IMG/VR virus record: IMGVR_UViG_3300009605_004544
Location: 1-64,000 of that record
From: a virus
Reading direction: 5' to 3' (one strand)
DNA length: 64,000 bases
The position numbers and the translations under genes are program-made. The notes under the pieces were generated by a model. The model ran no database searches. It worked only from the letters and a program-made list of their open reading frames with translations, and was not told the origin of the DNA. Below are positions 2,189 to 54,892 of the stretch, piece by piece (position 1 is the first letter of the stretch; every line of letters begins with the position of its first letter).

Positions 2189-3427
2189 ATGATTGATATA
2201 AGATTTGACAGAAGAAACTTTATGAAAGTGGGAGGTATTAGCACCGGCCTTGCCTCTCTAGGATTGTCAGATGACAATGTAGAGAATATTCCCAACAATG
2301 AAAAGTCAGTAGTCTGGTTATGGCTAGGCGGTGGAGCAACTCATATTGAGACATTCGATCCTAAGCCAATGGCTCCAGTGGAGGTAAGATCCACTACTGG
2401 TGCGGTTATGACCAATGGAGGCTTCCTCCTTGGTGGAAACTTTATTAAGATGGCTAGCAGGGGAGACAAGATTGCTGTAGTTAGATCGTTTGCTCACAGC
2501 AACTCTAGTCATAGAACTGGCACTCACTGGGTAATGACTGGGCATAACTCGACTGACAACACTCCACAGTCAATGCAACAAGAACCATCATACGGTTCTA
2601 TCATGTCATCGGTATATGGAGCCAATCATCCTACAACCGGAATGCCCTCCTATGTCAGAGTCAATGGTATTTCTTTTGATGGCCCAGCTTGGTTAGGAGG
2701 TCAGTATAAGCCCTATGGAGCAAGTGGCGAAGGTGTTGAAAACCTTAAGACCAGAGTGGAGAACAATCGTTTTCTTCAACGTCGTGACTTAGTTGGTGGA
2801 CTAGACAAGCTAAAGATTGAGAACGATCTGGAAATCTGGCCCGACTTGCGTAAGCAATCCTTTGGTCTTATTTTAGGCAAGGCTAGCGAAGCCTTCGATC
2901 TTAAGAAGGAACCAGAAGCCAACCGTAAGAAGTACGGCAAGGGGCTGGGAGAGCAAATGCTGCTGGCTCGCAGGTTGGTTCAGAACGGAACCAAGTTTGT
3001 AACCATTCATTACGGCGGATGGGATATGCATAGCAACATTGCGAAGTCCCTTAACGGCAGAATGCCCCCACTTGACCATGCCCTGTCTACTTTTATTGAT
3101 GATTTGTATGACAGGGGTATGAGTAAGAATGTTCTGCTCGTAGTTACTGGTGAATTTGGACGCACCTATCGCGTTAATAAGAATGCTGGTAGAGATCACT
3201 GGGCGCAACTTAGCCCACTGATGTTTAGCGGTGGAGATTTTGAAATGGGTAGGGTAATCGGGGAATCTACGGCTAAGGCAGAAACTCCCAAGAGTGAACC
3301 CTTTGGGCCGAAAGATGTTACCGCTACTATGTTTGCCCACTTCGGTATTGATCCTCAATTGCAGAAGATTGATTTCGCTGGTCGTCCAAGATATTTCGTG
3401 GAGAGTGATGCGAAGGCAATTCTTTAA
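2189..3427 (+). CDS. DUF1501 family protein with twin-arginine signal
   Basis: RRNFMK Tat motif; WLGGG..HIETFDPKP, LLARRLV..G..FV, GGWDMH, GEFGRT, GRDHW; RBS GGAG. Confidence 0.9.
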   Translation: MIDIRFDRRNFMKVGGISTGLASLGLSDDNVENIPNNEKSVVWLWLGGGATHIETFDPKPMAPVEVRSTTGAVMTNGGFLLGGNFIKMASRGDKIAVVRSFAHSNSSHRTGTHWVMTGHNSTDNTPQSMQQEPSYGSIMSSVYGANHPTTGMPSYVRVNGISFDGPAWLGGQYKPYGASGEGVENLKTRVENNRFLQRRDLVGGLDKLKIENDLEIWPDLRKQSFGLILGKASEAFDLKKEPEANRKKYGKGLGEQMLLARRLVQNGTKFVTIHYGGWDMHSNIAKSLNGRMPPLDHALSTFIDDLYDRGMSKNVLLVVTGEFGRTYRVNKNAGRDHWAQLSPLMFSGGDFEMGRVIGESTAKAETPKSEPFGPKDVTATMFAHFGIDPQLQKIDFAGRPRYFVESDAKAIL

Positions 3428-3429
3428 AA

Positions 3430-3440
3430 GGTGTACTTAA
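3430..3440 (+). promoter_or_regulatory. GGTGTA-type motif (degenerate copy)
   Basis: GGTGTACTTAA, intergenic, upstream of a separate AAGGAG RBS. Confidence 0.35.
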
Positions 3441-3461
3441 AATTTAAGGAGAAGTTCGACA

Positions 3462-3767
3462 ATGAGAAAATTTATTACTATGTTGGTGGTTTTTGCCGCG
3501 TGTCTTGCTGCAACTACTGATGTTCAGGCAGAAGATAAGGATTCAAAAGTTAATGGATGGTCTGGGCATCGCACAATTATCCCATATCGCGCACCCGCTT
3601 ATCCTCCACCTGCACCAACCATTCCCACTCCAAATCTTGATGGGTTTCACTTTCTGCCACACCTTTACATCGGGCCTAATGACAGAGGAGGCTTTGGAAG
3701 TAACTTTGGTCTAAGGTTTGGTAGATTTAGGTCTTATGGTTTTCGTCTTGGAGTTGACTTCTTTTAG
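3462..3767 (+). CDS. Secreted Pro/Gly-rich hypothetical protein
   Basis: Signal peptide MRKFITMLVVFAACLAATTDVQA; Pro-rich middle; C-terminal FF. Confidence 0.7.
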   Translation: MRKFITMLVVFAACLAATTDVQAEDKDSKVNGWSGHRTIIPYRAPAYPPPAPTIPTPNLDGFHFLPHLYIGPNDRGGFGSNFGLRFGRFRSYGFRLGVDFF

Positions 3768-3776
3768 AGGGGGAGA

Positions 3777-4118
3777 ATGTGCATGAGTGATAGTGTTAAA
3801 ATAAACGACTGGGTTCAAAGAACTGCAACGCCCCTACCGGGGAAGGAGCCTTTCGACTGATATCCTTGGTCTATTGCGCAGGTTGCGCAAATTGAGGAAG
3901 ACGGTGTTCATGTTATGTTTTCATGTAAGTGTATGACTCATGACCTTTCTGATACTAAATACTGGTTCAACGGAGAATATGAACCTCTTGACCCTATGAC
4001 CCTTGATGAAAAGCTAGATGCTCACGCCCTACACTGTCCTTTTAAAGTGAATTTCTCAGCAACATCTTTCCCCTCTAACAAAATTATTTTCCAAGCAACT
4101 ACAGAGGACTACAAATGA
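3777..4118 (+). CDS. Candidate selenoprotein (in-frame TGA 3858-3860), SH3-like / Cys-His-rich; alternatively a nonsense pseudogene
   Basis: RBS GAGGGGGAG then ATG 3777/3783; same frame as track ORF 3915..4118; only interruption is TGA 3858, followed by a SECIS-like hairpin. Confidence 0.6.
3863..3898 (+). promoter_or_regulatory. Putative bacterial-type SECIS stem-loop
   Basis: TCCTTGGT-CTA-TTGCGCA-GGT-TGCGCAA-ATTGAGGA: 8 bp lower stem (3 GU pairs), 3 nt bulge, perfect 7 bp upper stem, G-first loop 20 nt after the TGA. Confidence 0.55.
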
Positions 4119-4543
4119 AGCTCGAAAGAGGACAGAAGCGTTGCAAAAATTGCAAGGCCATTAATGCCGCTAGGCAACGCATCTGTACGAATTGTGACGA
4201 AGAGTTCAAGCTCAAGAAGACCCGTATAAAAAATGAGATTGTTAACTGGGAAGAATTACAGCCCGGAGATACCTTCAGGATCATTAACGGAACTGGCTCG
4301 TACTTTACTATACAGAGCGACTGTTGCTCGGGTAAAAAGGGTGAAAAGATCATGATGGGCCAGAAGGGAAAGTTTGAGGTGAAAGAGATTGTGGAAGACG
4401 GCATTAAGGCTCATGGACTCCCCCCTTACAATTTTGGAAGTAGCTTTGTGTATATGGGGGAAGATTTTTTTAACGAGGACTTGGGTATTCAAAGGACCGC
4501 CCATCGTATTGTAAAGATTAATGACATTAAAACTAGACATTGA
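4115..4543 (+). CDS. Zn-ribbon hypothetical protein
   Basis: CKNC...CTNC at the N-terminus; RBS GAGGA; ATGA overlap. Confidence 0.75.
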   Translation: MKLERGQKRCKNCKAINAARQRICTNCDEEFKLKKTRIKNEIVNWEELQPGDTFRIINGTGSYFTIQSDCCSGKKGEKIMMGQKGKFEVKEIVEDGIKAHGLPPYNFGSSFVYMGEDFFNEDLGIQRTAHRIVKINDIKTRH

Positions 4544-4554
4544 GGAGTGTCAAT

Positions 4555-5106
4555 ATGGCCCTCAACGCCACAAGTAAGCCTGCGATCTCGTTTACTTTAA
4601 CAATCACTGAAACCTCTTACATGAATAGTCAGGTGACGGAAAGTACCATAGGAGGAAAGTCGGACCTGACGTTTACTAACGGTGACGGAACGGGCCAAAT
4701 CAATATGGGTTCCGCCATTAGTGGGAATTTGCCATCTGGAGGTGTTACATCGTATGACTTTACATCATTCCCAAAAGCCGTCTTTGGCAGTTCTATTAAT
4801 CTAGACTTTTCATCGGGCATAAAGGGGATCACCGTTGTTAACAATTACAACATTCCCACGGGGTCAGGCGGAATTCCAATGGCAGTCGCAGACCTGCCCT
4901 ATATCAATATTAATGCAACCGGATCTAACGCATTTACAGAGTTATTTAATGGCGAGTCTGGGAATATAAAAATCAACCCCCAAGGATCGTGGACATTTGT
5001 AGACTTTGTAGGCCGATTCCCAACTGCCTCCAACAAACTCGTCCATCTCGTAGATTCCGGCTCAGGTGTGCCTTACGAGATAACAATAATAGGCGTCACG
5101 GGATAA
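4555..5106 (+). CDS. Ser/Thr/Gly-rich beta protein, possible virion structural protein
   Basis: GAGGAG RBS, starts MAL..., composition typical of virion proteins. Confidence 0.6.
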   Translation: MALNATSKPAISFTLTITETSYMNSQVTESTIGGKSDLTFTNGDGTGQINMGSAISGNLPSGGVTSYDFTSFPKAVFGSSINLDFSSGIKGITVVNNYNIPTGSGGIPMAVADLPYININATGSNAFTELFNGESGNIKINPQGSWTFVDFVGRFPTASNKLVHLVDSGSGVPYEITIIGVTG

Positions 5107-5906
5107 TGTCGAAGGAAAAGAAGTGTCTCACCTCTTCTAGCTCTTTCCGAATTTTATTGATCGGGGAATCATGCAAGGATGAATACGTTTACGGAACTTG
5201 CGGACGTATATGCCCCGAAGCTGCCGCAATTTGCTTTAAAAGTAGCGGCGTGACCAAAAGCAGCGGAGGAATGACTGCTAATGTGCTTGCCAATATCCAC
5301 TCCCTCTGCCCTTCCGCAGATGTTGATGTGGTTACAAATACTTCAGCGATAATAAAGAGAAGATTTGTTGATCTTAGATACAACACAATCGTTTTCAGAG
5401 AAGATGATTCCGACTTTTGTGAGAGAGGGGAATTTAGTGACATCTGTTTTAAAGAATACGATGCTATAGTAATTTCTGATTACTGTAAGGGATTTTTGAC
5501 AGAGGAAGATATCCGATATATAAGTAGTCAGGGGCGCTCTGAGGCACCCCAGTTTATAGACACAAAGAAAACGCTAGGGCGATTTCTGAATAACATTGAT
5601 TTTGTTAAGATTAATCAAGAAGAATATGACAGCAATGTCTCTAATCTAAAAGACATATTAGATTCTTGCAAAAATCTCATTGTAACCTGCGGACGCAATG
5701 GCGCAATTCATCACAGCAAGGGGAGTCTTGCCGTGCAATACGAGGCCGACAAGGTGGACGTAAGGGACGTGTGTGGTGCGGGAGACACCTTTTTAGCAGC
5801 CTTGGTGGTAGAATATCTTAACGAAGAAAACATTGAGTCTAGTATAAAATATGCGAACGAGATGGCCGCGAGAGTTGTGAGAAAGCTCGGAGTGTCAACC
5901 CCATAA
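5106..5906 (+). CDS. PfkB/ribokinase-family kinase, HldE (RfaE) kinase domain-like
   Basis: ILLIGESCKDEY..G...RICPEA, VISDY.KG, KIN..E, DVCGAGDTF. Confidence 0.88.
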   Translation: MSKEKKCLTSSSSFRILLIGESCKDEYVYGTCGRICPEAAAICFKSSGVTKSSGGMTANVLANIHSLCPSADVDVVTNTSAIIKRRFVDLRYNTIVFREDDSDFCERGEFSDICFKEYDAIVISDYCKGFLTEEDIRYISSQGRSEAPQFIDTKKTLGRFLNNIDFVKINQEEYDSNVSNLKDILDSCKNLIVTCGRNGAIHHSKGSLAVQYEADKVDVRDVCGAGDTFLAALVVEYLNEENIESSIKYANEMAARVVRKLGVSTP

Positions 5907-5950
5907 AAGTGGACAGTAGATAGGGGAGAGTTAAAATTTTTCCTAAGAAA

Positions 5951-6337
5951 GTGTGGACCAATGGATGTTATGATATACTTCACATAGGTCACGTAAGACT
6001 GTTTGATTACGCCAAGTCACTAGGGGACATTCTTATCGTTGGGATAGACAGCGACAGGCGTGTCAAGGAACTTAAGGGGGAGGGCAGGCCAATAAATAGT
6101 CAGGAAGATCGTAAGGAAATGCTTCTTAGCAATCACAACATTGATGGCGTCTTTATTTTTGATTCTTCAGAAGAGCTTAGCCATCTAGTTAAAAGTAATG
6201 AAATTCATACGATGGTTGTTGGGGATGACTACAGGAGAAAGAAGGTAGTTGGCTCGGAACACGCTAAAGAGGTAGTGTTCTTTAAAAAAATTCAAGGGCT
6301 TTCAACTACAAATATTATAGGAAGGTGCCCACAATGA
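5951..6337 (+). CDS. Nucleotidylyltransferase, HldE (RfaE) domain II-like
   Basis: VWTNGCYDILHIGH, GIDSD..VK.LKG.GRPIN, STT; true start uncertain. Confidence 0.88.
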   Translation: MWTNGCYDILHIGHVRLFDYAKSLGDILIVGIDSDRRVKELKGEGRPINSQEDRKEMLLSNHNIDGVFIFDSSEELSHLVKSNEIHTMVVGDDYRRKKVVGSEHAKEVVFFKKIQGLSTTNIIGRCPQ

Positions 6338-7482
6338 AAGTCTATGATTACTGCCCGTTTTTTAGCTCTGCCGAAAACGATTTATATGAAATTAGAATAA
6401 ATGAGCATTGGGACTGTGTAGATAAGTTCATTATTATAGAGTCCGGAGAGACACATACGGGGTTCAAAAAGAGACCGAACTTTGACCATGAAAGATTTAG
6501 AAAGTACGCAGAGAAGCTGCTATACGTACATTTTGACACCTTTAAAGAGGAAATGGCAAAATACCCTACCCTCATAGACCACAAAATTAACAAAACTCGC
6601 GAAGGAACTCCTGCGGAACATGATTGGGCTAGAGATAATTTCCAAGGCAATTATATCGTTAAGGTTTTAGAAGACCTTGATGCCGACGACGAAGATATTG
6701 TGTATGGTAGCTCTCTGGATGAGATTATTTCCACAAAGTCTCTTGGAAAAGCAATAAAAATAGTGGGAAATAATAGGTCAGAGCTATTTAAGGCCAAGAC
6801 GTCAGAGGGTCATGATAAAAACGGCTTACACATCACGAAGTGGGGCGAGTATAATGATTTGCATATTCCTCCACTGATGGGATTTTGGCTTAAGACATAC
6901 GCTTATAAATTGAACCTTTTATGTCCTACCGTTATTCCTATGGCGAATATTACAACCTATGGCGCGTTAAAAACAATTTTACCCGCTACTCTCAGGCATC
7001 TAGCGATATATACTCATGATGCGATTGGCTCGTTTCACAATCCTGCTGGATGGCACTTCACTTGCTATGACAACACCCCTTTTGGAGGGGGGGTATATCA
7101 AAAATACTCTAGCTGGGCACATAGTAAAGATGATATTAATTTTTGTCGAGACCTTCCGAAATGTTGCGTTCATCATTTCAGAGAAGAGGTAGCAATTAGA
7201 GTATTTCAGGAGTTTAGCTTAGAAGTAGTTAAAGTTAAAAGAAAAACACATCCAAATTTTTTGTTGGATAATATAGATATGTTTAGCCGGGGTCTTTGGA
7301 ATCCCCTTGGAGTTGATGGTAAAATAGACAGGGAAGAAGCGAAACGAAGAATGGCTGGCCTTCCCCCATCCCAGACTACGGTTAGTTGCGGGCCATCAGG
7401 CACTGAGGGTATAAGTTCTGCATTTGCCGAGCATGGGCCAGTAATCGAAAACGGACGCTGGAAGGAGCAACATCTTGGTTGA
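6334..7482 (+). CDS. Glycosyltransferase family 17-like
   Basis: VYDY.PFF..E.DL.EIR, VDKFIIIES..TH.G..K, LDEI, GWHFT. Confidence 0.8.
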   Translation: MKVYDYCPFFSSAENDLYEIRINEHWDCVDKFIIIESGETHTGFKKRPNFDHERFRKYAEKLLYVHFDTFKEEMAKYPTLIDHKINKTREGTPAEHDWARDNFQGNYIVKVLEDLDADDEDIVYGSSLDEIISTKSLGKAIKIVGNNRSELFKAKTSEGHDKNGLHITKWGEYNDLHIPPLMGFWLKTYAYKLNLLCPTVIPMANITTYGALKTILPATLRHLAIYTHDAIGSFHNPAGWHFTCYDNTPFGGGVYQKYSSWAHSKDDINFCRDLPKCCVHHFREEVAIRVFQEFSLEVVKVKRKTHPNFLLDNIDMFSRGLWNPLGVDGKIDREEAKRRMAGLPPSQTTVSCGPSGTEGISSAFAEHGPVIENGRWKEQHLG

Positions 7483-7858
7483 TTTAAACCCCGAAATGCA
7501 GATTCTGGGAGCCTTAATTGACGTAACACACAACAAGAGGCTCCTGTTTTGCGTTCCCGAAAGCGCAGGAGATATTTTTTTGTCCACTAGCTTGCTGCCT
7601 TCCATGAAAGAAAACTACCCTGACTTTGACATTTACTTTGGATGTAACAGACAATTCCACGGCATCCTAAAGGGCAACCCCAATATATATAAAGTGCTCC
7701 CCTATATGTCAATTATGGAGAATGTATGGGTGATGGAGGGAGGAAGTGACTGGGGGGGATTTTTTGATGTCTCGATTATTGCAACTGTTTTGACCCAGAG
7801 ATTTATCAACTATCATCACAACGGGATGGATGTGAGTTCTTTTAATTTTAGGAAGTAA
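7475..7858 (+). CDS. GT9 (heptosyltransferase-like) N-terminal domain only
   Basis: AGDIFLSTSLLPSMKENYPD..I, ILKGNPNI. Confidence 0.7.
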   Translation: MVDLNPEMQILGALIDVTHNKRLLFCVPESAGDIFLSTSLLPSMKENYPDFDIYFGCNRQFHGILKGNPNIYKVLPYMSIMENVWVMEGGSDWGGFFDVSIIATVLTQRFINYHHNGMDVSSFNFRK

Positions 7859-7859
7859 G

Positions 7860-8423
7860 ATGCACCAGCTTGAGACATGCGCCCTAGTTAGTGGCGCCAA
7901 GATAGGAAAATGCTTTATTCAAGAGGAGGAGATTGAGATTCCTCACGGGGAATATATCACATTCCACCCTCATCACGACAAGGGAACTGCGAGGCAATAC
8001 GATCACTGGGGAAGGGTTATTGATTTAATTACTGACGAGCTTCCTAATATCCAAATGCTACAGATAGGGCAATCAAATGATACTCCATATCGTGATGACC
8101 TACATTGCGTAGATCCTAGCTTACTGGGCAACACGACTTACAACTCTTTGGCGTATGTCATAAAGAATAGCGTGCTACATTTAGGCTATGACAGCCTTGC
8201 CGTCCATCTAGCCTCGCACTACCAAAAAAAGATCGTCGCACTTTTTCCCCATTGGGCCAAGAGTAGCGGTCCATATTTTTCTAGACCAGAAGATGTCATT
8301 CTCTTCGAGCCAGATTTTTCAAAAATTAAACCCTGCTTTAGTTATGACGATCCCTACAGGCTGTTAAACACCATCGCTCCAGAAGATATTGCCAGAGCAA
8401 CCATTCATTTATTGGGGAATTGA
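7860..8423 (+). CDS. GT9-like C-terminal domain protein
   Basis: RQYDHW..VI, QIG, HLGYDSLAVHLAS...KKIVALF. Confidence 0.75.
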   Translation: MHQLETCALVSGAKIGKCFIQEEEIEIPHGEYITFHPHHDKGTARQYDHWGRVIDLITDELPNIQMLQIGQSNDTPYRDDLHCVDPSLLGNTTYNSLAYVIKNSVLHLGYDSLAVHLASHYQKKIVALFPHWAKSSGPYFSRPEDVILFEPDFSKIKPCFSYDDPYRLLNTIAPEDIARATIHLLGN

Positions 8424-8432
8424 GCGTATAAT

Positions 8433-9131
8433 ATGGTGCGATCTTTCTATATATCCGTGGATATGGGAGATCTTGTTTACTCCCTCCTATTTTGTAAAAT
8501 TCTTAACGTAGATACTATCTATGTAGATGGAGCGAGCAACGATGTGAAGTTCGATTGGGACTCAGCTAATTTTTTACTTCCTTTAATCAATAGTCAGGAC
8601 TACATTAAGGCAGCCGAGTTATATGATGGTCAAGATTTTGATGTCAACTACGGATTGCACCCCACAGAAGAGCCGGTGATCGTAGGAACGAACCTCACGG
8701 CCTATCATGCGTCAAAATTCAATATCAACCAAGACGACAGCAGGCTTTATGAGCCGTGGCTTAGAGTTGGCGAACATCAAAACCCAATACTCGCCCATAA
8801 AAAGGTATTGATTAACAGGACAAGCAGATATCACGGAGATTACAGCTTTTATTCTAATTTTTTGAGATATGTTGATCCCGAATTTTTAGTATTCGCTGGA
8901 TTAGAATCGGAATATTCAGATTTTTATCAACAGTTCGGCATAAGTATGGACTTTGTGAAAGCTACAGACGGACTAAGACTCGCTGAAATAATCAATGTGG
9001 TTCCAACATTTGTAGGCAACGAGTCCTTGATATGTGCGATTGCAAAGGGCCTTGGAAAGCATTGCTACGTCGAGTATGGCAGGATGGCTGCTAACTATAT
9101 TTTCAATCGCCCAAATATCTTCTATTTTTAG
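8433..9131 (+). CDS. GT9-like glycosyltransferase
   Basis: MGDLVYSL, EPWL, INRTSRY, FVGNES..CAIA.GLGK. Confidence 0.65.
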   Translation: MVRSFYISVDMGDLVYSLLFCKILNVDTIYVDGASNDVKFDWDSANFLLPLINSQDYIKAAELYDGQDFDVNYGLHPTEEPVIVGTNLTAYHASKFNINQDDSRLYEPWLRVGEHQNPILAHKKVLINRTSRYHGDYSFYSNFLRYVDPEFLVFAGLESEYSDFYQQFGISMDFVKATDGLRLAEIINVVPTFVGNESLICAIAKGLGKHCYVEYGRMAANYIFNRPNIFYF

Positions 9132-9143
9132 GAATATATAGCT

Positions 9144-10091
9144 ATGGCAGTTTACGACTGTTTTCCATTCTTTAACGAGAACGACCTTCTTGAGTTGCGA
9201 CTCAACCAACATTGGGATTTCGTTGACAAGTTCATAATAACCGAAGCAGGAGAAACTCACACTGGATTAAAGAAACCCTTCAACTTTGATCACGATAGAT
9301 TTAAAAAATACGAGTCTAAAATCAAATATGTTACGTTCAATAGTTTTGAAGAAGAAATTCAACGCAATTTGAACCTACTCGACGAGCACAGCGTCTCCGA
9401 CAGAACATCAATTGGCCAACACACGGAGGACTGGATTAGGGACCACTTCCAAGGCAATTATCCAGTCAAAATACTGCGAGAATTGGAGGCTCAGGACGAA
9501 GACATCATCTACATTAGCGCCCTAGACGAAATTCTGAGCAACAAAGGCTTTACGAATGGTCTGCAAATTTTTGAGGACAAGGGCAAGCGATACCACCTGA
9601 GAATGTCTGGCATTCCGCTGTATAGAGAAGAGGCGCAGCCAGTAATGGTTAGGCCTATTTTTGGCTTTAAGCTCGACATGTATGCCTATAAATTCAATCT
9701 TTTTTCAACGGTCATATCTGGACCGGCAATGACCGAATGGCAAACTATGAGCAGGAACCTTCCCTCCACGACAAGAAGCTTGGCCTATGATACCCACGAT
9801 CCGGTTGTAAATGCAGGATGGCACTTCACATTTTTAGACGATACGGATGGAGAAAAAATATTGGCTAAATATAAAAGCTGGGCACATTCCAGAGATCGTG
9901 ACACATTAAACGACCTCTCGAATGCAGACTATTCAGCTGAAGAGTGCATGTATTTTGATATTCAGACAAAAGAGGAGGCTGTTGAGAGGATGCTGAGCAT
10001 ATACAAACCCAACAAAGTGGACATATCCGAAGACACTCATCCAATTTTTCTTGTAAATAACTTGGATCAGTATGGTGGCTATATTCTATGA
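9144..10091 (+). CDS. Glycosyltransferase family 17-like (paralog of 6334..7482)
   Basis: VYDCFPFFNENDLLELRL, VDKFIITEA.ETHTG.KKP, LDEI, GWHFTF. Confidence 0.82.
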   Translation: MAVYDCFPFFNENDLLELRLNQHWDFVDKFIITEAGETHTGLKKPFNFDHDRFKKYESKIKYVTFNSFEEEIQRNLNLLDEHSVSDRTSIGQHTEDWIRDHFQGNYPVKILRELEAQDEDIIYISALDEILSNKGFTNGLQIFEDKGKRYHLRMSGIPLYREEAQPVMVRPIFGFKLDMYAYKFNLFSTVISGPAMTEWQTMSRNLPSTTRSLAYDTHDPVVNAGWHFTFLDDTDGEKILAKYKSWAHSRDRDTLNDLSNADYSAEECMYFDIQTKEEAVERMLSIYKPNKVDISEDTHPIFLVNNLDQYGGYIL

Positions 10092-10828
10092 ATGATAGAA
10101 TTTGCATATTGACAATGTATACGGAGGAGATTAAAGAACTCGGCGTTATAACTGTTGAATATAACAAACGAAGATACTGTGAAAAGCACGGATATTCTCT
10201 TGATATTAGAAAAGACCCCTCTAAATTCCACACGACTGCTGATTATGGAATGCCCCACTTCGGATATGAAAAAATAGGGGCGATTCTAGAACTCGTAAAC
10301 AGCAATAAATATGAATGGATATTTTGGTGTGGCTCGGACACGATGATAACTAACTATGGTATAAAGCTCGAAGACCTAATTGATCCAGATTATCACTTTA
10401 TTGTCCCTAATGATCTATGGGGCCTTAACACGGACTGCTTATTAGTCAGGGCCAGTTCCGAGGCCGCGACTTTTTTGAAAGAAGTTTACGGCACGTTCCA
10501 TAAATACGTGGACGAGAATGGCGTAAATATAGATACGGGGGTAAGATTACCTGACGGCGGCGCGAGATCGTGGGCAGAGCAAGGGGCTATTAACGACCTC
10601 AAGGATAAATACAACGACATTATAAAGGTAGTGCCGCAAAAAACCATGAATTCATACCTCTACCAGATGTACCCTAGCCCTTGGCACCAGAGAGGGCTAG
10701 ATTGCGATGGTAACGATGGCACATGGGCGCCGGGAGATTTTTTGTTGCACCTTCCCGGCATGCCAAATGAGGCTCGCTTGAACATAGTGATCAATCTTCT
10801 TAAAGAGGTAATAGGTGACGACCAATGA
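10088..10828 (+). CDS. GT34 (GMA12/MNN10-like) glycosyltransferase
   Basis: NKRRYCEKHGY, YEWIFW..SD.MITN, EQGAI, MNSY, GDFLLH.PG. Confidence 0.8.
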   Translation: MNDRICILTMYTEEIKELGVITVEYNKRRYCEKHGYSLDIRKDPSKFHTTADYGMPHFGYEKIGAILELVNSNKYEWIFWCGSDTMITNYGIKLEDLIDPDYHFIVPNDLWGLNTDCLLVRASSEAATFLKEVYGTFHKYVDENGVNIDTGVRLPDGGARSWAEQGAINDLKDKYNDIIKVVPQKTMNSYLYQMYPSPWHQRGLDCDGNDGTWAPGDFLLHLPGMPNEARLNIVINLLKEVIGDDQ

Positions 10829-11970
10829 CTAGGAAAGTATGGTATGCTCCCAATGGTTTTGAGGCATATGGAGAAGAAGAAATTAAAGCCGTCGAAGAGT
10901 GCCTTAGAGATGGCTGGCTTGCTGGATTTGGTAACAAGTCTCTCGAATTCGAGAGGAGAGTCGCAAATATTTTCGGCAAACAGTATGGGGTGTTTGTAAA
11001 CTCAGGGTCTTCTGCGTGCTTGCTCGCCCTTGCCTCCCTAGACCTTCCGAGAGGAGCGGAAATTGTCACCCCTGCCTGCACATTTTCTACAACGGTCGCC
11101 CCCATGGTCCAGCTTGGCTATTCTCCTGTATTTTGCGACGTTGGCCTTACTTCGTATGTGCCCGAAGTGAAGGATGTCATAGAGTTAGTTTCTAAAAACA
11201 CTAAGGCTATCATGATTCCTAATTTGATTGGAAACAAACCCGATTGGCCAAAACTTAGAGAAGCTCTTTCAACAATTGGCAGGGAAGATATCTATCTCAT
11301 AGAGGATTCTGCTGATACTATCACACACACTCAGGAATCCGACATTTCCACCACTAGTTTTTACGCGAGTCATGTTATTACGGCGGGTGGGTCTGGAGGC
11401 ATGGTCATGTTTAATGATGAAGCCCATCGAGACAGATGCCTCCAATATAGAGATTGGGGTCGCGTTGGCAACAACTCTGAACATGTTGACGATAGGTTCA
11501 ATCATGAGATAGATGGAATTCCTTATGATTTTAAGTTTCTGTATGGAGTACTAGGGTATAATTTCAAGTGTTCTGAAATGAATGCTGCATTTGGATTAGT
11601 GCAGCTTGATAGGTTCGAAGATTTTAAAGCCGTCAGAAGGCGCAATATTGAGAGATATTTAGACAATCTCAAGGACTTGGGGAAGGTCTTATTGCCGGAT
11701 GACAGCATCCAACCCAACTGGCTTGCAGTTCCACTTCAAACGGACGATAGACTGGGTCTTCTTACTTTCTTGGAGCAAAATGATATACAGACTAGAGTTA
11801 CATTTGCAGGTAACGTTACACGGCATCCAGCATACAGACATTACCTGCAAGCCTTTGACAATGCTGATACAATCATGAAAAACGGGTTTTTGTTGGGTGC
11901 TCATCACGGAATGGAAGTAGAGGACGTGGACTACGTTTGTGAAAAAATCAAGGAATTCTGTGGGAAGTAA
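10825..11970 (+). CDS. DegT/DnrJ-fold PLP/PMP enzyme, RfbH/ColD-like 3-dehydratase (His in place of catalytic Lys)
   Basis: VNSGSSA, NLIGN, IEDSAD, SFYASHVIT.GG.GG, RDWGR, GYN.K. Confidence 0.85.
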   Translation: MTRKVWYAPNGFEAYGEEEIKAVEECLRDGWLAGFGNKSLEFERRVANIFGKQYGVFVNSGSSACLLALASLDLPRGAEIVTPACTFSTTVAPMVQLGYSPVFCDVGLTSYVPEVKDVIELVSKNTKAIMIPNLIGNKPDWPKLREALSTIGREDIYLIEDSADTITHTQESDISTTSFYASHVITAGGSGGMVMFNDEAHRDRCLQYRDWGRVGNNSEHVDDRFNHEIDGIPYDFKFLYGVLGYNFKCSEMNAAFGLVQLDRFEDFKAVRRRNIERYLDNLKDLGKVLLPDDSIQPNWLAVPLQTDDRLGLLTFLEQNDIQTRVTFAGNVTRHPAYRHYLQAFDNADTIMKNGFLLGAHHGMEVEDVDYVCEKIKEFCGK

Positions 11971-11974
11971 AAAG

Positions 11975-12934
11975 ATGAAGGTGGTTTATGTAACAGGCTG
12001 CTTGGGCTTTATAGGCTCCTATGTAACCCGACAATGCCTAGATCTCGGATGGTATGTGCGAGGCATCGACAAGATGACCTACGCAGCCAACCAAGACCTA
12101 TTAAAGGAGTTCGAAACCTACGACAATTTTGTCTTTGAGAAAATAGACATTAATGACATTGAGTTCTTATACGACTGCGACTATGTTATTAATACTGCTG
12201 CCGAAACCCACGTAGGCAACTCTATTGTTTGTAGCGACTGCTTTGTTAGTTCCAATATTAAAGGAGTGCACCATCTTCTTGAGCTAATACGCAACTTTAG
12301 ACAAGAAGGAAAGGACGTTCCGGTATTATTTCATTTTAGTACGGATGAGGTTTATGGTGATATAGGATCGGGTAGTCATACAGAGGACGACCTCTTGATG
12401 CCATCTAATCCGTATTCAGCTACCAAGGCTTCAGCAGACATGCTCGTTCTTGCATGGGCTAGAACATACGGAATACCCTACATCTTATTAAGACCAACAA
12501 ACAACTACGGGATAGGCCAATATATTGAAAAGCTTGTACCCAAGACCTGTAAGTATATTGGGTTGGGAAGAAAAATACCTCTCCACAACGATGGTTTGCC
12601 TGTAAGGAACTGGCTTCATGCTGACGACACCGCTTCCGCTGTTGTACAGATCATAAGTGCTGACGTAGTTAATGAAATCTATAACGTTGCCGGTGGGTTT
12701 GAACAGCAAAATATTGCTACCGTTACAAAAATATTAAGGGCTTATGACAAGCTCAACAAGCAAGAGTCTAATATTCAAGACTTCTTAGATCTATCTGCCT
12801 CCAGACCGGGGCAGGATGTTCGATATGCTTTAAACGACAGGAAGCTAAAGAACTTAGGCTGGTCTCCGAAGAGACACTTTGATTCAGAGATACAAAATAT
12901 AGTAGATTATTACCGCGACAAATTTATTTGGTAA
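11975..12934 (+). CDS. rfbB: dTDP-glucose 4,6-dehydratase-like
   Basis: TG.LGFIGS, DKMTYA, AAETHV, STDEVYG, PSNPYSATK, NNYG, RPGQD.RY. Confidence 0.9.
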   Translation: MKVVYVTGCLGFIGSYVTRQCLDLGWYVRGIDKMTYAANQDLLKEFETYDNFVFEKIDINDIEFLYDCDYVINTAAETHVGNSIVCSDCFVSSNIKGVHHLLELIRNFRQEGKDVPVLFHFSTDEVYGDIGSGSHTEDDLLMPSNPYSATKASADMLVLAWARTYGIPYILLRPTNNYGIGQYIEKLVPKTCKYIGLGRKIPLHNDGLPVRNWLHADDTASAVVQIISADVVNEIYNVAGGFEQQNIATVTKILRAYDKLNKQESNIQDFLDLSASRPGQDVRYALNDRKLKNLGWSPKRHFDSEIQNIVDYYRDKFIW

Positions 12935-12941
12935 GGGTGGC

Positions 12942-14480
12942 ATGATGCAAGACAGAGTCTTAATTATTTGTGAAATGGCAAACAACCACATGGGCGACGT
13001 TGCTCACGGCAAGTTAATGATTGAGCAATTCTCCAAGGTCGCAGATTCATACCGCGACACTTTTGACTTTGCTTGGAAGTTCCAGTTCAGAGACTTGGAT
13101 ACTTTCATTCACAAAGATTACGTTCGTCGAGACGACCTCAAGTATGTGAAAAGGTTTAAAGAGACCGACTTATCACAAGAACAGTTTATAGATCTCATGC
13201 GTCATGCTGAAAAGCACGGCTTCTGGACTATGTGTACGGCTTTTGACGAACCCTCAGTGGCACGCATTAGCGAAATGAATTTCGATATAGCAAAGGTAGC
13301 AAGCTGCTCCTTTACGGATTGGCCCCTACTTAACGAATTAATAAGCTTAGACATTCCCATTATCCTGTCTACTGCCGGGGCAACCACACAAGACATAGAC
13401 AATGTTGTTAGCTTTATGCAGCATCGAAACAAGGACTTCTCCTTAATGCACTGTGTTGGACAGTACCCCACGGATGCCAGCAACTTACAGCTAAACCAAA
13501 TAAGCCAGCTTATGGCCAGATATCCCGATGTAGGGGTGGGATATTCCACGCACGAACATCCGTCAGAAACGCGGGCTATCTCTATGGCGATAGCTAAGGG
13601 TGCTGCGCTTGCCGAAAAGCACGTTGCTGTAGAAACAGACCAATATCCTATCAATGCCTATTCAGTAACCCCAGAACAAATGGACAAGTGGCTTCGATCT
13701 GCAAGCGATGCTCTGGTAATGAATGGCTCTCTAGGGAAGCCGCAGCCTCGTGAACAGGAACTGTCTGACTTGGGGCAGTTTAAGCGAGGGGTATTTGTAA
13801 AAAGAAATATCCAAAGCGGAGAGACTATTACTAGAGATGATCTCTATTGCGCTTGGCCTAGTATCGAGGGGCAATTTTTAGCAAACTCCATGTCTAAGTA
13901 TAGTTCGTTCACGGTCAATGAAGACCTACCAGAAGATAGCCCATTGCTAACTGCTAATGCAACCGTAGAAAATCGCAGAAACGATGTGTGGGATATAGTC
14001 CAAGACGTGAAAGGGTTTTTAAACGAGTCGAATGTGGTTTATCCTTCTCAAGCTGAATTAGAGATATCTCATCACTACGGTATAGATGATTTCTATGAGA
14101 CGGGGATCTCAATGATTACGGTCGTCAATCGGGACTACTGCAAAAAGCTGATTGTTGTTCTTCCGAATCAAAACCATCCAGAGCAATACCATCTGAAAAA
14201 AGAAGAGACTTTTGTGGTTTTGCATGGAGAATTGGATTTGAAACTGTCTTCAATTAATTCAATTGCCAATAGCTGGCCAGAAAAAATCGAATCTCACCAC
14301 TTGCTGAAGGTTGGTGATGTTATCACGATTGAACCAGAAGTGAGGCACGAATTTTCTAGTAAAAACGGGTGCGTTCTAGAAGAGGTGTCGTCCACCCACT
14401 ATGTTGACGACTCATTCTACACTGACCCTTCTATCGTCGAGAACAGGAACAGGAAGACTTTTGTCTCCTATTGGAAATAA
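12942..14480 (+). CDS. NeuB-family nonulosonate synthase + SAF + C-terminal cupin (D-lyxose isomerase-like)
   Basis: EMANNHMGD, KFQ, KVAS, LSTAG, HC...YP, GYSTH, EKH; C-terminal YCKKL...HPEQYH.KKEETF. Confidence 0.88.
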   Translation: MMQDRVLIICEMANNHMGDVAHGKLMIEQFSKVADSYRDTFDFAWKFQFRDLDTFIHKDYVRRDDLKYVKRFKETDLSQEQFIDLMRHAEKHGFWTMCTAFDEPSVARISEMNFDIAKVASCSFTDWPLLNELISLDIPIILSTAGATTQDIDNVVSFMQHRNKDFSLMHCVGQYPTDASNLQLNQISQLMARYPDVGVGYSTHEHPSETRAISMAIAKGAALAEKHVAVETDQYPINAYSVTPEQMDKWLRSASDALVMNGSLGKPQPREQELSDLGQFKRGVFVKRNIQSGETITRDDLYCAWPSIEGQFLANSMSKYSSFTVNEDLPEDSPLLTANATVENRRNDVWDIVQDVKGFLNESNVVYPSQAELEISHHYGIDDFYETGISMITVVNRDYCKKLIVVLPNQNHPEQYHLKKEETFVVLHGELDLKLSSINSIANSWPEKIESHHLLKVGDVITIEPEVRHEFSSKNGCVLEEVSSTHYVDDSFYTDPSIVENRNRKTFVSYWK

Positions 14481-14481
14481 A

Positions 14482-16284
14482 ATGAAAGTATCAGACTACA
14501 TAGCCTCTAAGGTTGCCGAATATGTAGACCATGTCTTCTTGATATCTGGGGGCGGCTGCATACATTTGGTTGACTCTTTTTCTAAGTCTCCGATAAGCAT
14601 GATTCCCACGCTACATGAACAGGGGGCGTCGATATGTGCCGAGTCTTATGGGCAGTATACCAATAGGCTCGGTGTTGCCCTCGTTACGACAGGGCCGGGA
14701 GCCACCAACGCTCTCACTGGAGTAGCTTCTGCTTGGCTCGACTCGATCCCCATGCTAATTATTTCAGGGCAGGTACAAAATAAAGACAGGGTGGGGAATA
14801 GGGGCGTAAGGCAGATTGGGTTTCAAGAAATCGACTCTGTTTCTATCTATAAGGGGGTCACAAAATGGGCAATTACGATAACTGATCCTCAAAATATTAG
14901 GTACTGTGTAGAAAAGGCTCTTTGGTTTGCAACGCATGGTCGCAAAGGGCCAGTTCTGCTGGACATCCCCTTAGACATTCAAGCTGCCGACATAGACCCT
15001 AGTAGTCAAGGGGGCTTTGAGGCACCCGAGTTTTTTGACACAGGAGGATACCCACCAAACTTAGAGTGCGTATCTGCCATTTTAGACGAGATGGACTCCG
15101 CAAAGAGGCCGATTGTTTTGGCTGGGAACGGAATTCGTCTGGCAGATGCGGTGCCCGAATTTTTAACCTTCATCCGTAACACGAACATTCCTGTCTTAAC
15201 AACTTGGAAAGCAATGGACTTCCTAGAAGAAGAACATCCTCAATACGTTGGAAGACCCGGAGGGGTTGGGCAAAGAGGAGCCAATTTTAATCAACAGAAT
15301 GCAGACTTCATCTTAACTATAGGAGCCAGACTAGATCATGGGCAACTCGCCTATCAACCACAATATTTTGCCAGAGAAGCTGTAAGATGTATAGTAGACA
15401 TCGATAGGAACGAGATCGAAAAGCTAGGAATAGAAATCCACTATCCGGTTGATATGGATGCAAAAGTCTTTTTAAACGAAGCCAACCGGCTCTTAGCGGC
15501 AGACCCGTTATTGGTTGACCCGCTGCCTTCTGAGTGGTTATCTAATTGCAAAAGGCTATACGAAAAATACCCGGTGATCGAGCAGAAATATCTGGATAAC
15601 GAAGGTCTCATAAATAATTATGCGTTTATTGAATATCTCTCAGAACTACTCCCACAAAACTCTCTACTTATACCGGGAAGCTCTGGAGCATGCAGTGAAG
15701 TCACCATGCAGGCATTTAAATGCAAGAAGGGAACTAGAGTTTACAACAGCGAGGGTCTTGGAGCCATGGGCTTTGGCATTCCAGCCGCTATCGGCGGCTG
15801 TCTAGCGAGCGGCAAAGAAACCATTTGCATAGATGGTGATGGAGGCTTTGTTATGAACATACAGGAACTTGAACTGACTCGAAGGTACAGCTTGCCAATT
15901 AAATTTTTTGTTCTCAATAACGACGGCTATGGCTCCATTAAGACAACTCAAAATACTCATTTTGGGGGACGGTTGGTAGCTAGCGACCCCTCAAGTGGGC
16001 TAACGCTCCCTTCCGTTGAGTTAAATGCAGCAGCATACAAAATACCCTATTTTAGAATAGAAACCCAGCAACACCTAAGAGAAGGCTTGAAGCAAGTATT
16101 GGCCAAGAAAGGCCCGGCTGTCTGTGAATTAATGGTTGATCCTAATCATGTCACCCTTCCCAAAGCCTCCGTGTTCAAGAAAGAGGACGGAAGCTTTTCA
16201 ACAAGACCGATGGAAGATCTTTTCCCGTTCTTGGATAGGGAAGAGTTTCGAGAAAACTTAATGATAGAAGAGATTCCAGAATAA
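14482..16284 (+). CDS. ThDP-dependent enzyme, acetolactate synthase-like / YerE-like
   Basis: LHEQ, TTGPGATN, ISGQV, FQE, GPV.LDIPLD.Q, GAMGFGIPAAIG, GDGG...N.QEL, NNDGY. Confidence 0.9.
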   Translation: MKVSDYIASKVAEYVDHVFLISGGGCIHLVDSFSKSPISMIPTLHEQGASICAESYGQYTNRLGVALVTTGPGATNALTGVASAWLDSIPMLIISGQVQNKDRVGNRGVRQIGFQEIDSVSIYKGVTKWAITITDPQNIRYCVEKALWFATHGRKGPVLLDIPLDIQAADIDPSSQGGFEAPEFFDTGGYPPNLECVSAILDEMDSAKRPIVLAGNGIRLADAVPEFLTFIRNTNIPVLTTWKAMDFLEEEHPQYVGRPGGVGQRGANFNQQNADFILTIGARLDHGQLAYQPQYFAREAVRCIVDIDRNEIEKLGIEIHYPVDMDAKVFLNEANRLLAADPLLVDPLPSEWLSNCKRLYEKYPVIEQKYLDNEGLINNYAFIEYLSELLPQNSLLIPGSSGACSEVTMQAFKCKKGTRVYNSEGLGAMGFGIPAAIGGCLASGKETICIDGDGGFVMNIQELELTRRYSLPIKFFVLNNDGYGSIKTTQNTHFGGRLVASDPSSGLTLPSVELNAAAYKIPYFRIETQQHLREGLKQVLAKKGPAVCELMVDPNHVTLPKASVFKKEDGSFSTRPMEDLFPFLDREEFRENLMIEEIPE

Positions 16285-16315
16285 GGTAATGGTATGAATA
16301 AAAACATATAAATTC

Positions 16316-17194
16316 ATGATTAATATTCTAATCACAGGTGCTAACGGCTTCATAGCCAAAAGCTTAAACGAGTCTCTAAGTTACCATTACGATATAAATA
16401 TGTGTGACAGGCAGAAATTAGATCTGCTTGACTCTGATAAGGTTCTTGAATATATAAAACTGAATAACTTTGATGTTGTTATCCACGGAGCAACTTATGA
16501 CGCTGCCCCAGAATTTTCAACGAAAGACCCGGATGCTGTTCTAGAAAACAATCTAAGGATGTTCTTTAATCTAGCCAGATGTAGTGACTATTTTGGTAAG
16601 ATGATTTACTTTGGCTCTGGTGCAGAGTTTAGTCGCCCCCACTGGACCCCTCGTATGTCAGAAAATTATTTTGGCATACATGTCCCTGTCGATCAATACG
16701 GATATTCAAAATACTTGATGAACGAATACGCTTCGCTGAGTTCTAATATATACAACCTTAGACTATTTGGCCTGTTTGGTAAATATGACGACTGGAGATA
16801 TCGTTTTATTTCTAATGCTTGCTGCAAGGCTGTGCTGGGGATGTCCATATCCATGAGACACAACTCTGTATTTGACTATCTGTATATAGACGACCTAATT
16901 TCCACCGTAGACTGGGCCATTAACAACATTCCCGAACACAAAGACTACAATGTATGTAGCGGGGAATCAATTTCTTATATGGCTCTGGCTAATTTAATTA
17001 TAGAAGAGTCGGGGAAGAAACTGGAGATCATCGTTGAACAAGACGACACTAGCTATGAATACAGCGGAGACAATTCACGCCTCATCGCTGAAGCGGGGTT
17101 GGTTTTTACGGACATTCGATCCTCGATAAAAAAATTGTACAGGACGTATCTGCATAACAAAAGTATAATATCTAAGGAGCTATTTGTTTACTAA
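16316..17194 (+). CDS. NAD-dependent epimerase/reductase (extended SDR)
   Basis: ITGANGFIA, GSGAE, YGYSK, LRLFG.FG. Confidence 0.88.
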   Translation: MINILITGANGFIAKSLNESLSYHYDINMCDRQKLDLLDSDKVLEYIKLNNFDVVIHGATYDAAPEFSTKDPDAVLENNLRMFFNLARCSDYFGKMIYFGSGAEFSRPHWTPRMSENYFGIHVPVDQYGYSKYLMNEYASLSSNIYNLRLFGLFGKYDDWRYRFISNACCKAVLGMSISMRHNSVFDYLYIDDLISTVDWAINNIPEHKDYNVCSGESISYMALANLIIEESGKKLEIIVEQDDTSYEYSGDNSRLIAEAGLVFTDIRSSIKKLYRTYLHNKSIISKELFVY

Positions 17195-17712
17195 TGAAAA
17201 CCGCCATAGAACTTTTAGATAGGGCAGTGTCGTTATTTCGAAAAGAAGAGCCAGACACGGGCCTTCCACAAAAAATATTCCACTTCGTGAGCAGGTCTAC
17301 GCCCATTGTGAATGTTGACTTGCTTATCAAGGATGAAACCGGCAGAATTCTTCTGTCTTGGAGGGATGACGAGTTTGCTGGGAGCGGGTGGCATATTCCC
17401 GGCGGCATTGTAAGATTTAAAGAAACCATGGAGGACAGGCTACTCAAGGTTGCAAACATTGAGATCGGAACTGAAGTAGAATACGATTCATCCCCGCTAT
17501 GTTGCAAGGAAGTCTTTTTACCTCACGATACGAGAGGGCATTTTGTGTCGTTTTTATATAATTGCTTTTTGAGTAGCGATTTTGACCCCTCCAATTCGAT
17601 GTTCGGCAAAACAGACGCAGGATTTTTACAATGGCATGAGGTGTGTCCCGATAATTTAGTGGAAGTCCAAAACATGTACCGGCCATATATAGAGGGGACA
17701 TATTTTGCATAA
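17194..17712 (+). CDS. Nudix hydrolase, GDP-mannose mannosyl hydrolase-like
   Basis: TPIVNVDLLI, W.IPGG.VR.KET....L..VA..E.G, H.VS. Confidence 0.8.
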   Translation: MKTAIELLDRAVSLFRKEEPDTGLPQKIFHFVSRSTPIVNVDLLIKDETGRILLSWRDDEFAGSGWHIPGGIVRFKETMEDRLLKVANIEIGTEVEYDSSPLCCKEVFLPHDTRGHFVSFLYNCFLSSDFDPSNSMFGKTDAGFLQWHEVCPDNLVEVQNMYRPYIEGTYFA

Positions 17713-18196
17713 GCATAAAACTATAGCAATCAGTGGCGGATTTGATCCTATTCATGTAGGGCATCTCCATATGATTAAAGAGGCTTCCAAGCACGGGAGT
17801 GTCATAGTTATTCTAAATAGTGACGCATGGCTAGAGCAAAAAAAGGGCTATGTGTTTATGCCCTTCAAAGAAAGGAAAGCAATCCTAGAAGAGTTTGAAT
17901 CCGTTCATCACGTTGTTGAAGTGGACGACTCTGATGGCACAGTGTGTGCCGCTTTAGATCAATTACGCCCATGTTATTTCGGAAACGGGGGAGATAGAGT
18001 CTCTGATAATGTTCCAGAAGTGAAGTTCTGTAAAAGGTATAGTATTGGACTAGTGTGGAATCTTGGAGGAAGTAAGATTCAAAGCAGTAGCGAATTAGTC
18101 ACTCATTCAAAAGACTATGACTACAAGGATAGAGATTTAAAAAAACACAACGACCCTTCCGATCCCTTTGAACTAGAACTAGGGGGTCAGGGGTAG
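17705..18196 (+). CDS. Cytidylyltransferase-like protein
   Basis: ISGGFDPIHVGH, LNSD.WL..KKG, F.NGGDR, K.QSSS. Confidence 0.88.
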   Translation: MHKHKTIAISGGFDPIHVGHLHMIKEASKHGSVIVILNSDAWLEQKKGYVFMPFKERKAILEEFESVHHVVEVDDSDGTVCAALDQLRPCYFGNGGDRVSDNVPEVKFCKRYSIGLVWNLGGSKIQSSSELVTHSKDYDYKDRDLKKHNDPSDPFELELGGQG

Positions 18197-19359: not shown

Positions 19360-19361
19360 TT

Positions 19362-19802
19362 ATGGCTAAACTTGATATGGTGGTTTTGAAGGAAGGCGAG
19401 GGAGACGTTCCTATGCCGGGGCAGGCAGTCTTAATGCACTATGAATTATGGGCTGGAGAAGGAGTAACCTCCTCCTTATATGATTATGGTAAAAAGGAAT
19501 ATGTAGACAGCATTTATTACAGCACGTATGACACGAGCATTCCCCTCTCAGGCCCTATTGAAATATGCATCGGGCAAAGAACGCCAAAGGACGAGGTTTA
19601 TACTAAAAGAGATTCCATTCAGGGTCTGGATGATGCCCTACTCTCTATGAGGGTGGGAACCAAGTGTCAACTTTCTATACCGGCTGAATTGGCATACGGA
19701 GAAGAGGGGGCAAGCAGCTTCCATACTTTCCATGGGTACAGAACGCCTCCAAATAAAGAGATTAGGTGTAATATAGAGTTAGTGGACATTGTAGAGGAGT
19801 AA
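19362..19802 (+). CDS. FKBP-type peptidyl-prolyl isomerase
   Basis: EG.G..P..GQ.V.MHY, IQGLD..L.SM.VG....L.IP.ELAYG, PPN. Confidence 0.8.
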   Translation: MAKLDMVVLKEGEGDVPMPGQAVLMHYELWAGEGVTSSLYDYGKKEYVDSIYYSTYDTSIPLSGPIEICIGQRTPKDEVYTKRDSIQGLDDALLSMRVGTKCQLSIPAELAYGEEGASSFHTFHGYRTPPNKEIRCNIELVDIVEE

Positions 19803-19805
19803 AGC

Positions 19806-21654: not shown

Positions 21655-21667
21655 AAGGAGACATGAG

Positions 21668-54884: not shown

Positions 54885-54892
54885 GAGACGAG

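Follow-up and report, generated by a model that had tools for sequence, protein, structure and literature searches.

A conserved in-frame UGA followed by a SECIS-like hairpin in a small gene of marine phages: a candidate bacteriophage selenoprotein

The UGA-containing gene, its relatives and its product

This study examined a 64,000-nucleotide stretch of viral DNA (positions 1 to 64,000 of the IMG/VR record IMGVR_UViG_3300009605_004544, hereafter the window) and, within it, a small gene on the plus strand at 3783..4118 whose frame is interrupted by a UGA at 3858..3860 (plus strand), the proposed selenocysteine (Sec) codon. The read-through coding sequence comprises 111 codons counting the UGA, which is residue 26 when numbered from ATG 3783, and is followed by a terminal TGA at 4116-4118. 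A Shine-Dalgarno (SD)-like GAGGGGGAG lies on the same strand at 3767..3775, 7 nt upstream of ATG 3783. An alternative ATG is found at 3777; the start at 3783 has the better SD spacing and agrees with the starts of the homologues, in which an ATG lies 22-25 codons 5' of the TGA with a purine-rich GGAG/AAGGAG/AGGT motif ahead of it. The coordinates given by an earlier, sequence-only reading of this DNA (ribosome-binding site, ATGs at 3777/3783, TGA at 3858 and the frame to 4118) were all borne out.

TGA is otherwise an ordinary stop codon in the window, terminating 31 of the 80 long open reading frames (ORFs), 18 of these as ATGA overlaps, and the TGA at 3858 is the sole one that splits an otherwise unoccupied open frame. 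The terminal stop of the UGA gene is also TGA in many homologous loci. These counts agree with the earlier view that the code is not globally changed. Additionally, the possibility of a sequencing error was checked, and the same TGA was found in independent assemblies and in an independent metagenome run, in which a 6,062-nt contig is identical to the window across 3373-4700 and carries the TGA without a variant. The gene lies outside the span of the RNA-library contigs X19 and X20.

Relatives of the gene were collected with a word-index protein search (n=10) and with DNA scans yielding 2 viral and 53 metagenomic loci (TARA and deep-ocean samples). The site is spanned by 52 marine phage or metagenome loci, and locus L056 represents a more distant subfamily, approximately 43% identical. 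The codon at the site is TGA in 52/52 spanning loci and in L056, at protein identities down to approximately 43%; 41 distinct homologous proteins were recovered, and the homologues keep TGA rather than a Trp, Arg or Gly codon. The UGA is flanked by EPFD and YPWS[IV]AQV, with PFD-U-YPWS being the most conserved stretch of the family and invariant as protein. Nei-Gojobori counts across the 41 distinct sequences gave ratios of nonsynonymous to synonymous divergence (pN/pS) of 0.22 for the 20 codons 5' of the TGA, 0.34 for the 21 codons 3' of it and 0.25 across the following 40 codons, the segment upstream of the TGA being likewise conserved as protein. Every synonymous codon is in use for the UGA-adjacent residues P, F, Y, P and S, indicating that these residues are selected as protein.

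The genuine Trp positions, -16 and +3, have TGG in 41/41 sequences, and the recoded site is TGG in 0/53 loci; a site that never becomes TGG while the nearby Trp codons always are TGG points to selection for the UGA itself. Between the UGA and the invariant CxCM, 9 of the 52 loci have no ATG, GTG or TTG at all, and the position of such a codon is variable in the others. The Asp codon 5' of the UGA is GAC in 41/41 sequences and never GAT, which could be a codon-context effect or the mark of a putative small second hairpin with the UGA. GACUG is able to pair with an invariant UGGUC shortly downstream (window 3855-3871), giving a small hairpin that includes the UGA; because this pairing is invariant, it has no covariation signal and is uninformative either way.

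An AlphaFold2 (AF2) model built on a 33-sequence alignment (pLDDT 76, pTM 0.69) places strand 10-13, encoded 5' of the UGA, within a small SH3-like barrel, and the product is predicted to consist of this phage-specific barrel and a helix after it. The best Z scores from VIA-align were 6.7 (2l89 PWWP), 6.5 (PsaE), 6.3 (Spt5 KOW) and 6.2 (NdhS), and Foldseek returned no match at E up to 0.001 for the AF2 model; the modelled SH3-like resemblance is read as a generic fold likeness only, without a sequence-family match. Cys48, Cys50, His81 and Cys85 are invariant and may form a centre for redox chemistry or metal binding; our guess is that this small SH3-like protein has such a function, with U26 acting alongside C48, C50, H81 and C85. 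The sequence-only reading had matched the protein to no selenoprotein family, and sequence searches of Pfam, PHROGs, NCBIfam and PDB gave nothing significant; in the Protein Atlas, searched with the part 3' of the UGA only, no score exceeded 0.78.

When 1.84 billion representative proteins were searched with a profile (E up to 0.001), 15 hits were returned, comprising eleven truncated members of the UGA-gene family, three tryptophan (W) calls made with code 4 and P0023, an unrelated 863-aa repeat protein that matches part of the profile only. W stands at the site in the predicted proteins P0002, P0003, P0005, P0012, P0014 and P0024. In P0002 and P0003 the terminal TGA is also read as W, running into the next gene, and this run-on indicates that they were called with code 4. 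The sources of P0012, P0014 and P0024 are contigs of 519-901 bp, one cluster also has a 63-aa form starting after the UGA (from a 2,735-bp contig), and the locus related to P0014 at the DNA level carries TGA there. The W at the site in database proteins is a code-4 gene-calling artefact. Overall, the public protein entries P0002-P0029 are either truncated (48-77 aa, with an internal ATG/GTG start) or W read-throughs on short contigs; with only these forms listed, the true product is absent from the protein collection searched.

The hairpin downstream of the UGA and its bacterial counterparts

On the plus strand at 3874..3890, a stem-loop resembling the apical part of a selenocysteine insertion sequence (SECIS), UUGCGCA-GGU-UGCGCAA, follows the UGA. 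It is made up of TTGCGCA (3874-3880), GGT (3881-3883) and TGCGCAA (3884-3890), with a conserved 5-bp core pairing 3875-3879 with 3885-3889. The stem begins 13 nt and the loop 20 nt after the UGA, with no length variation in any locus. The sequence-only reading had described a two-stem hairpin, of which the apical 7-bp stem and the loop 20 nt from the UGA stood; the lower stem (3863-3870 with 3891-3898, forming an extended plus-strand structure at 3863..3898 in the minimum free energy (MFE) fold of the window) did not fare as well, being weakly supported with 69% of cells paired across homologues, most relatives forming some lower stem with other partners.

Covariation was assessed on 39 distinct 69-nt segments, in which the 5-bp core occupies alignment columns 27-31 with 37-41. 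One core pair is U-A in 28 sequences and C-G in 10, a second is G-C in 20 and A-U in 19, and L056 bears a G-U intermediate at a covarying pair. Across the 195 cells of the core, both sides are changed with the pair kept in 29 and the pair is broken in 1. Each of these switches also changes an amino acid (Gln/Arg or Ala/Val), and pairs that switch even at this cost indicate that it is the RNA pairing that is being maintained. No sequence departs from GGU in the loop, the first G of which comes from a Gln codon that is CAG in 41/41 sequences. Synonymous divergence dips over the hairpin (pS 0.53, against 0.76-0.85 elsewhere), as expected with overlapping RNA and protein constraints. The check for SECIS covariation proposed with the original reading thus returned a conserved hairpin with two covarying pairs.

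By folding energy alone, the 3850-3910 segment is unremarkable (MFE -18.6 kcal/mol; z = -1.94 against shuffles). Across the 39 sequences, MFE ranges from -6.1 to -8.5 kcal/mol for the 17-mer and from -8.2 to -21.2 kcal/mol for the UGA plus 45 nt, and all the MFE structures printed show the apical hairpin. Over the 64 kb of the window, the motif GCRCAGGTNGYGC is found a single time, compared with 0.00 occurrences expected from shuffles. No Rfam family matched the whole window at gathering thresholds, nor the region 3760-4000 at E up to 10. The above-chance status of the element comes from the comparative evidence, namely the TGA in 52/52 loci, the covariation, the GCRCAGGTNGYGC count and the independent contig.

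Published constraints for bacterial SECIS (bSECIS) elements comprise an upper stem of 4-16 bp capped by an apical loop of 3-9 nt, a G within the first two positions of the loop (N1-G-[G|U]-N-N2, N1 pairing with N2), a UGA-loop distance of 16-37 nt and an MFE of -7.5 kcal/mol or lower (PMC13188914). All 39 distinct phage sequences lie within all four limits: each has a 5-7 bp stem bearing a loop of GGU (3 nt) or AGGUN (5 nt), the loop reads A-G-G-U-U in most and contains GGU in all, the spacing is 20 nt and the energies of the UGA plus 45 nt are those given above. The likeness to E. coli fdhF that the sequence-only reading had noted proved real when read on the E. coli K-12 sequence, in which the UGA is followed after 13 nt by UUGCA-GGUC-UGCA, compared with 13 nt and then UUGCGCA-GGU-UGCGCAA in the phage; no bulged U like U17 of fdhF is, however, evident in the phage hairpin.

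A candidate host lineage was suggested by a DUF1501 gene upstream of the UGA gene (2189..3427, plus strand; Pfam DUF1501, E 1.4e-69), which has a signal like that of twin-arginine translocation substrates and looks like an unusual auxiliary gene as well as a clue to the host. Its nearest cellular relatives are approximately 50% identical and nearly all belong to metagenome-assembled genomes (MAGs) of Planctomycetota, several of them marine Pirellulales/Planctomycetaceae. SelA, SelB and SelD were found in 4/4 of the MAGs with the nearest relatives (G001, G002, G003 and G005), and a tRNA-Sec above the family cut-off in 3/4. The same set contains peroxiredoxin-like and Rdx genes with an in-frame UGA and G-first hairpins, the stems of which, where measured, begin 18-23 nt past the UGA. 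The candidate host lineage thus has genes of the Sec machinery and many predicted selenoprotein genes besides; judged from their genes, marine planctomycetes with UGA-containing selD, peroxiredoxin-like and Rdx genes are rich in predicted selenoproteins.

The 13-nt phage tip, GCRCA-GGU-N-GYGC, equals the tip of the hairpin that follows the Sec-UGA in marine Planctomycetota selD. The selD gene itself encodes a selenoprotein in MAGs G003 and G005, with GCGCA-GGUCG-UGCGC and CCGCAC-AGGUG-GUGCGG, respectively, as the hairpin after the UGA. In an order-level sample, selD was found in 17 of 41 genomes and nine selD genes have an in-frame UGA, with hairpins including CCGCACAGGUUGUGCGG (two genes), GCACAGGUUGUGCAA, UCGCACAGGUUGUGCGA and UCGCGCAGGUCGUGCGU; taking the planctomycete MAGs together with their order, the UGA of selD is followed by CCGCACAGGUUGUGCGG, GCACAGGUUGUGCAA, UCGCACAGGUUGUGCGA or GCGCAGGUCGUGCG. 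The selD loci L113, L114, L165, L167, L168, L169 and L175 of marine Planctomycetota have a 13-17 nt apical stem-loop, GCACAGGUUGUGC or GCGCAGGUCGUGC, nearly the same as that of the phage, and the hairpin encodes AQVV[RQ] in selD as in the phage gene, although the proteins are unrelated and the closing pairs are G-C-rich in bacterial selD, whereas they are A-U-rich in the phage. The selD SECIS tip of planctomycetes (L113, L114, L165-L169 and L175) is well conserved across genomes.

The pattern TGA-N(9-36)-GCRCAGGTNGYGC gave 17 matches in the four planctomycete MAGs versus 8 in controls, and among the strict-pattern matches only the selD sites lie within real reading frames. Over 151 Planctomycetota genomes, the count of the short motif was not above control; GCRCAGGTNGYGC is too short for GC-rich genomes, and only ORF-verified sites were used. 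With the hairpin likeness and the DUF1501 relatives combined, the host is rather more probably than otherwise a marine planctomycete of the Pirellulales type.

Interpretation and alternatives

The gene at 3783-4118 likely encodes a single protein of approximately 110 residues in which the UGA at 3858-3860 would be read as selenocysteine. In the proposed mechanism, the hairpin 13 nt 3' of the UGA, with its tip GCRCA-GGU-N-GYGC, would bind host SelB as the ribosome nears the UGA; SelB with GTP and Sec-tRNA(Sec) would then deliver selenocysteine in competition with release factor 2, and translation would proceed to the stop at 4116. The phage would supply the cis signals only, with selA, selB, selC and selD coming from the host, likely a Pirellulales-type marine planctomycete. 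SelB binding, Sec insertion, the identity of the host and the chemistry of the protein are the parts of this reading that we infer. The selenoprotein proposal of the sequence-only reading is supported by the present results, and none of the refuting observations that were looked for (another codon in the homologues, an unconserved upstream segment, a sequencing error, a host lineage lacking the Sec trait) was made. A more specific version, in which the family is confined to phages, always uses Sec with no Cys form, and carries a signal copied from or converged on the SECIS of host selD, is possible but rather doubtful.

Several observations weigh against the selenocysteine reading. No Cys form was found among the 10 word-index hits, the 15 profile hits, the 55 DNA loci or 185,579 species genomes, and with no Cys homologue the usual Sec/Cys test is inapplicable. 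The D-U-Y-P-W context matches neither of the classic redox motifs UxxC and CxxU. The hairpin of planctomycete selD starts 27 nt after the UGA, compared with 13 nt in the phage. Neither the window nor three partial related records yielded a tRNA-Sec, a suppressor tRNA, selD or any other Sel gene; with no Sel gene in the parts seen, the recoding would depend wholly on the host, and the inference of that host rests on one auxiliary gene at approximately 50% identity together with the hairpin likeness. Finally, no DNA counterpart of P0024, the most distant relative, was found in viral contigs.

Some of these observations would suit an explanation in which the UGA is read through with a standard amino acid, such as Trp by a near-cognate tRNA, with the hairpin aiding read-through or slowing termination and the main product being a 25-residue peptide. 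A conserved UGA with coding on both sides fits this explanation equally well, and neither the missing Cys homologue nor the unclassical UGA context speaks for Sec. The hairpin tip, however, is a real SECIS tip in selD of the candidate host lineage, and the element agrees with the SelB-type model down to its invariant GGU loop; TGG replaces TGA in none of the 53 loci even though two nearby Trp codons are always TGG, and a 25-residue N-terminal peptide would hold only part of the strand arrangement of the barrel. Read-through with a standard amino acid is judged improbable. An explanation that takes the UGA as a true stop, with a 25-aa leader peptide, a separately initiated downstream protein and a hairpin that controls translation or mRNA stability, agrees with the gene callers, which annotate the downstream part alone (67-77 aa), and with the presence of ATG 3915 in the window and of a GTG after the UGA in many relatives. 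Against it, 9 of 52 loci have no canonical start between the UGA and CxCM, the start positions in the other loci are not conserved, and no start codon lies near the UGA for reinitiation; YPWS[IV]AQV, which is in frame with the upstream part, is moreover conserved at the protein level while its codons vary synonymously, and the predicted fold needs the N-terminal strand. This arrangement is regarded as quite improbable.

The remaining alternatives, a change of genetic code (TGA as Trp or Gly), a pseudogene or an assembly error, are very nearly out of the question and are excluded as far as sequence analysis reaches. The W at the site in some database proteins would suit a code change, but these calls include ones from contigs of 519-901 bp and two that read the terminal TGA as W too, while TGA ends 31 of the 80 window ORFs and serves as the stop of this very gene in many loci, and no suppressor tRNA was found in the window or related records. 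Stop-codon reassignment of the code 4 or 25 type was rejected on the grounds that 3858 is the only TGA-split frame and that TGA never swaps with TGG. An assembly error is contradicted by the identical TGA in more than 50 independent assemblies and the independent run, and a pseudogene by strong purifying selection. Taken together, the conserved TGA, purifying selection on both sides of it, the start-less loci and the AF2 strand leave no room for a pseudogene or a sequencing error and speak strongly against two separate genes.

Genomic setting, known systems and significance

The stop of the UGA gene overlaps, in an ATGA, the start of a zinc-ribbon gene (4115..4543, plus strand, 142 aa; weak N-terminal Pfam Zn_ribbon match), which adjoins the UGA gene in 42 loci and may be its functional partner; it is a syntenic neighbour that lies outside the recoding signal. 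Upstream, at 3462..3767 on the plus strand, lies a gene for a small secreted-looking protein of 101 aa with a hydrophobic N-terminus, relatives of which precede the UGA gene in 12 loci. The DUF1501 gene is syntenic in 17 phage loci at 47-99% identity. At 333-1609, a RuvA C-terminal-like ORF and, after it, a complete RuvB-like AAA+ gene are conserved in related phage contigs, indicating that these are phage genes and not host flank. The order RuvB, DUF1501, small protein, UGA gene, zinc-ribbon gene and an ORF at 4540 is shared by many related contigs, and the cellular-looking genes at the left end of the window (RuvA-C-like and RuvB-like, DUF1501 and the small secreted-looking protein) are thus phage genes.

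The window belongs to a large phage, with genes for ribonucleotide reductase, a DnaB-type helicase, primase, RecA, a DnaE-type polymerase and a PD-(D/E)XK nuclease. Related IMG/VR records are 57-92 kb in length and 37-45% complete (CheckV), which suggests genomes of approximately 150-200 kb. No close cultured phage was found, blastn of 3400-4600 against a phage collection giving no match, and the relatives that tblastn found for the DNA polymerase and the RuvB-like protein were all below 43% identity, giving no clue to the host. No prophage copy of the UGA-gene family was found in the 185,579 species genomes. Related phage records (L001 406-479; L156-L159) encode tRNAs Leu-UAA, Arg-UCU, Ile-UAU and Asp-GUC, for A/U-ending codons, which suggests a fit to a phage of 43% GC in a GC-richer host.

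Two further features of the window were observed in passing. A sugar/nonulosonic-acid biosynthesis island at 5109-22799 encodes a PfkB kinase, two GT17-like glycosyltransferases, a DegT aminotransferase, a 4,6-dehydratase, a NeuB-like protein with a cupin, a thiamine pyrophosphate-dependent enzyme, an epimerase, a methyltransferase and a radical SAM/SPASM protein. The DnaE-type DNA polymerase is split into 52837-54699 and 55564-57207, with an RNase T/DnaQ-like exonuclease ORF at 54800-55567 in between.

Among known systems, the glutathione peroxidases (GPx) of the poxviruses molluscum contagiosum and fowlpox are likewise viral selenoproteins made on host Sec machinery, in fowlpox with the SECIS inside the coding region (PMC8310308). 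They belong to eukaryotic viruses and are captured cellular GPx genes with eukaryotic SECIS elements (PMC8310308), whereas the present case concerns a virus of bacteria, a bacterial-type SECIS and a family without a cellular homologue. Compared with bacterial genes that carry a SECIS within the ORF, the gene is phage-borne, has no Sel machinery in the parts of the phage seen and belongs to a new family without a Cys form. Phages with recoded stops (TAG to Gln, TGA to Trp) share the in-frame stop that needs read-through (PMC9523058; PMC10747093); here, in contrast, one fixed codon in one gene is concerned, TGA is otherwise a stop, and neither a suppressor tRNA nor a tRNA-Sec was found.

Genes for tRNA-Sec have been described in three huge phages, for which selenoproteins were only speculated upon and no gene was named (PMC10747093). 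In a review of viral recoding, the poxvirus GPx genes are the sole viral selenoproteins named (PMC8310308), and a review of bSECIS prediction and selenoproteomes does not mention phages or viruses (PMC13188914). The recent reviews or databases of prokaryotic selenoproteomes that were consulted contain no mention of phages or viruses, a published marine survey has few or no viral sequences among its selenoprotein families, and the literature searched reports a selenoprotein for no virus of bacteria.

If the more specific version holds (a phage-only family that always uses Sec, with a signal copied from or converged on that of host selD), this gene would be the first documented bacteriophage selenoprotein and a case of SECIS mimicry. 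The family is an annotation blind spot, being present in public sets only as 67-77 aa truncations or code-4 W read-throughs, and it would add a selenoprotein family without a Cys counterpart. A match between phage and host SECIS elements could also serve host prediction. Under the more specific version, the phage would make the product only when host SelB and the selenium supply allow, and its many transcripts may vie for SelB with the selenoprotein mRNAs of the host. Selenoproteins are known from cells and a few poxviruses; the phage gene would extend them to the viruses of bacteria, which would then be tapping the selenium and the SelB system of their hosts.

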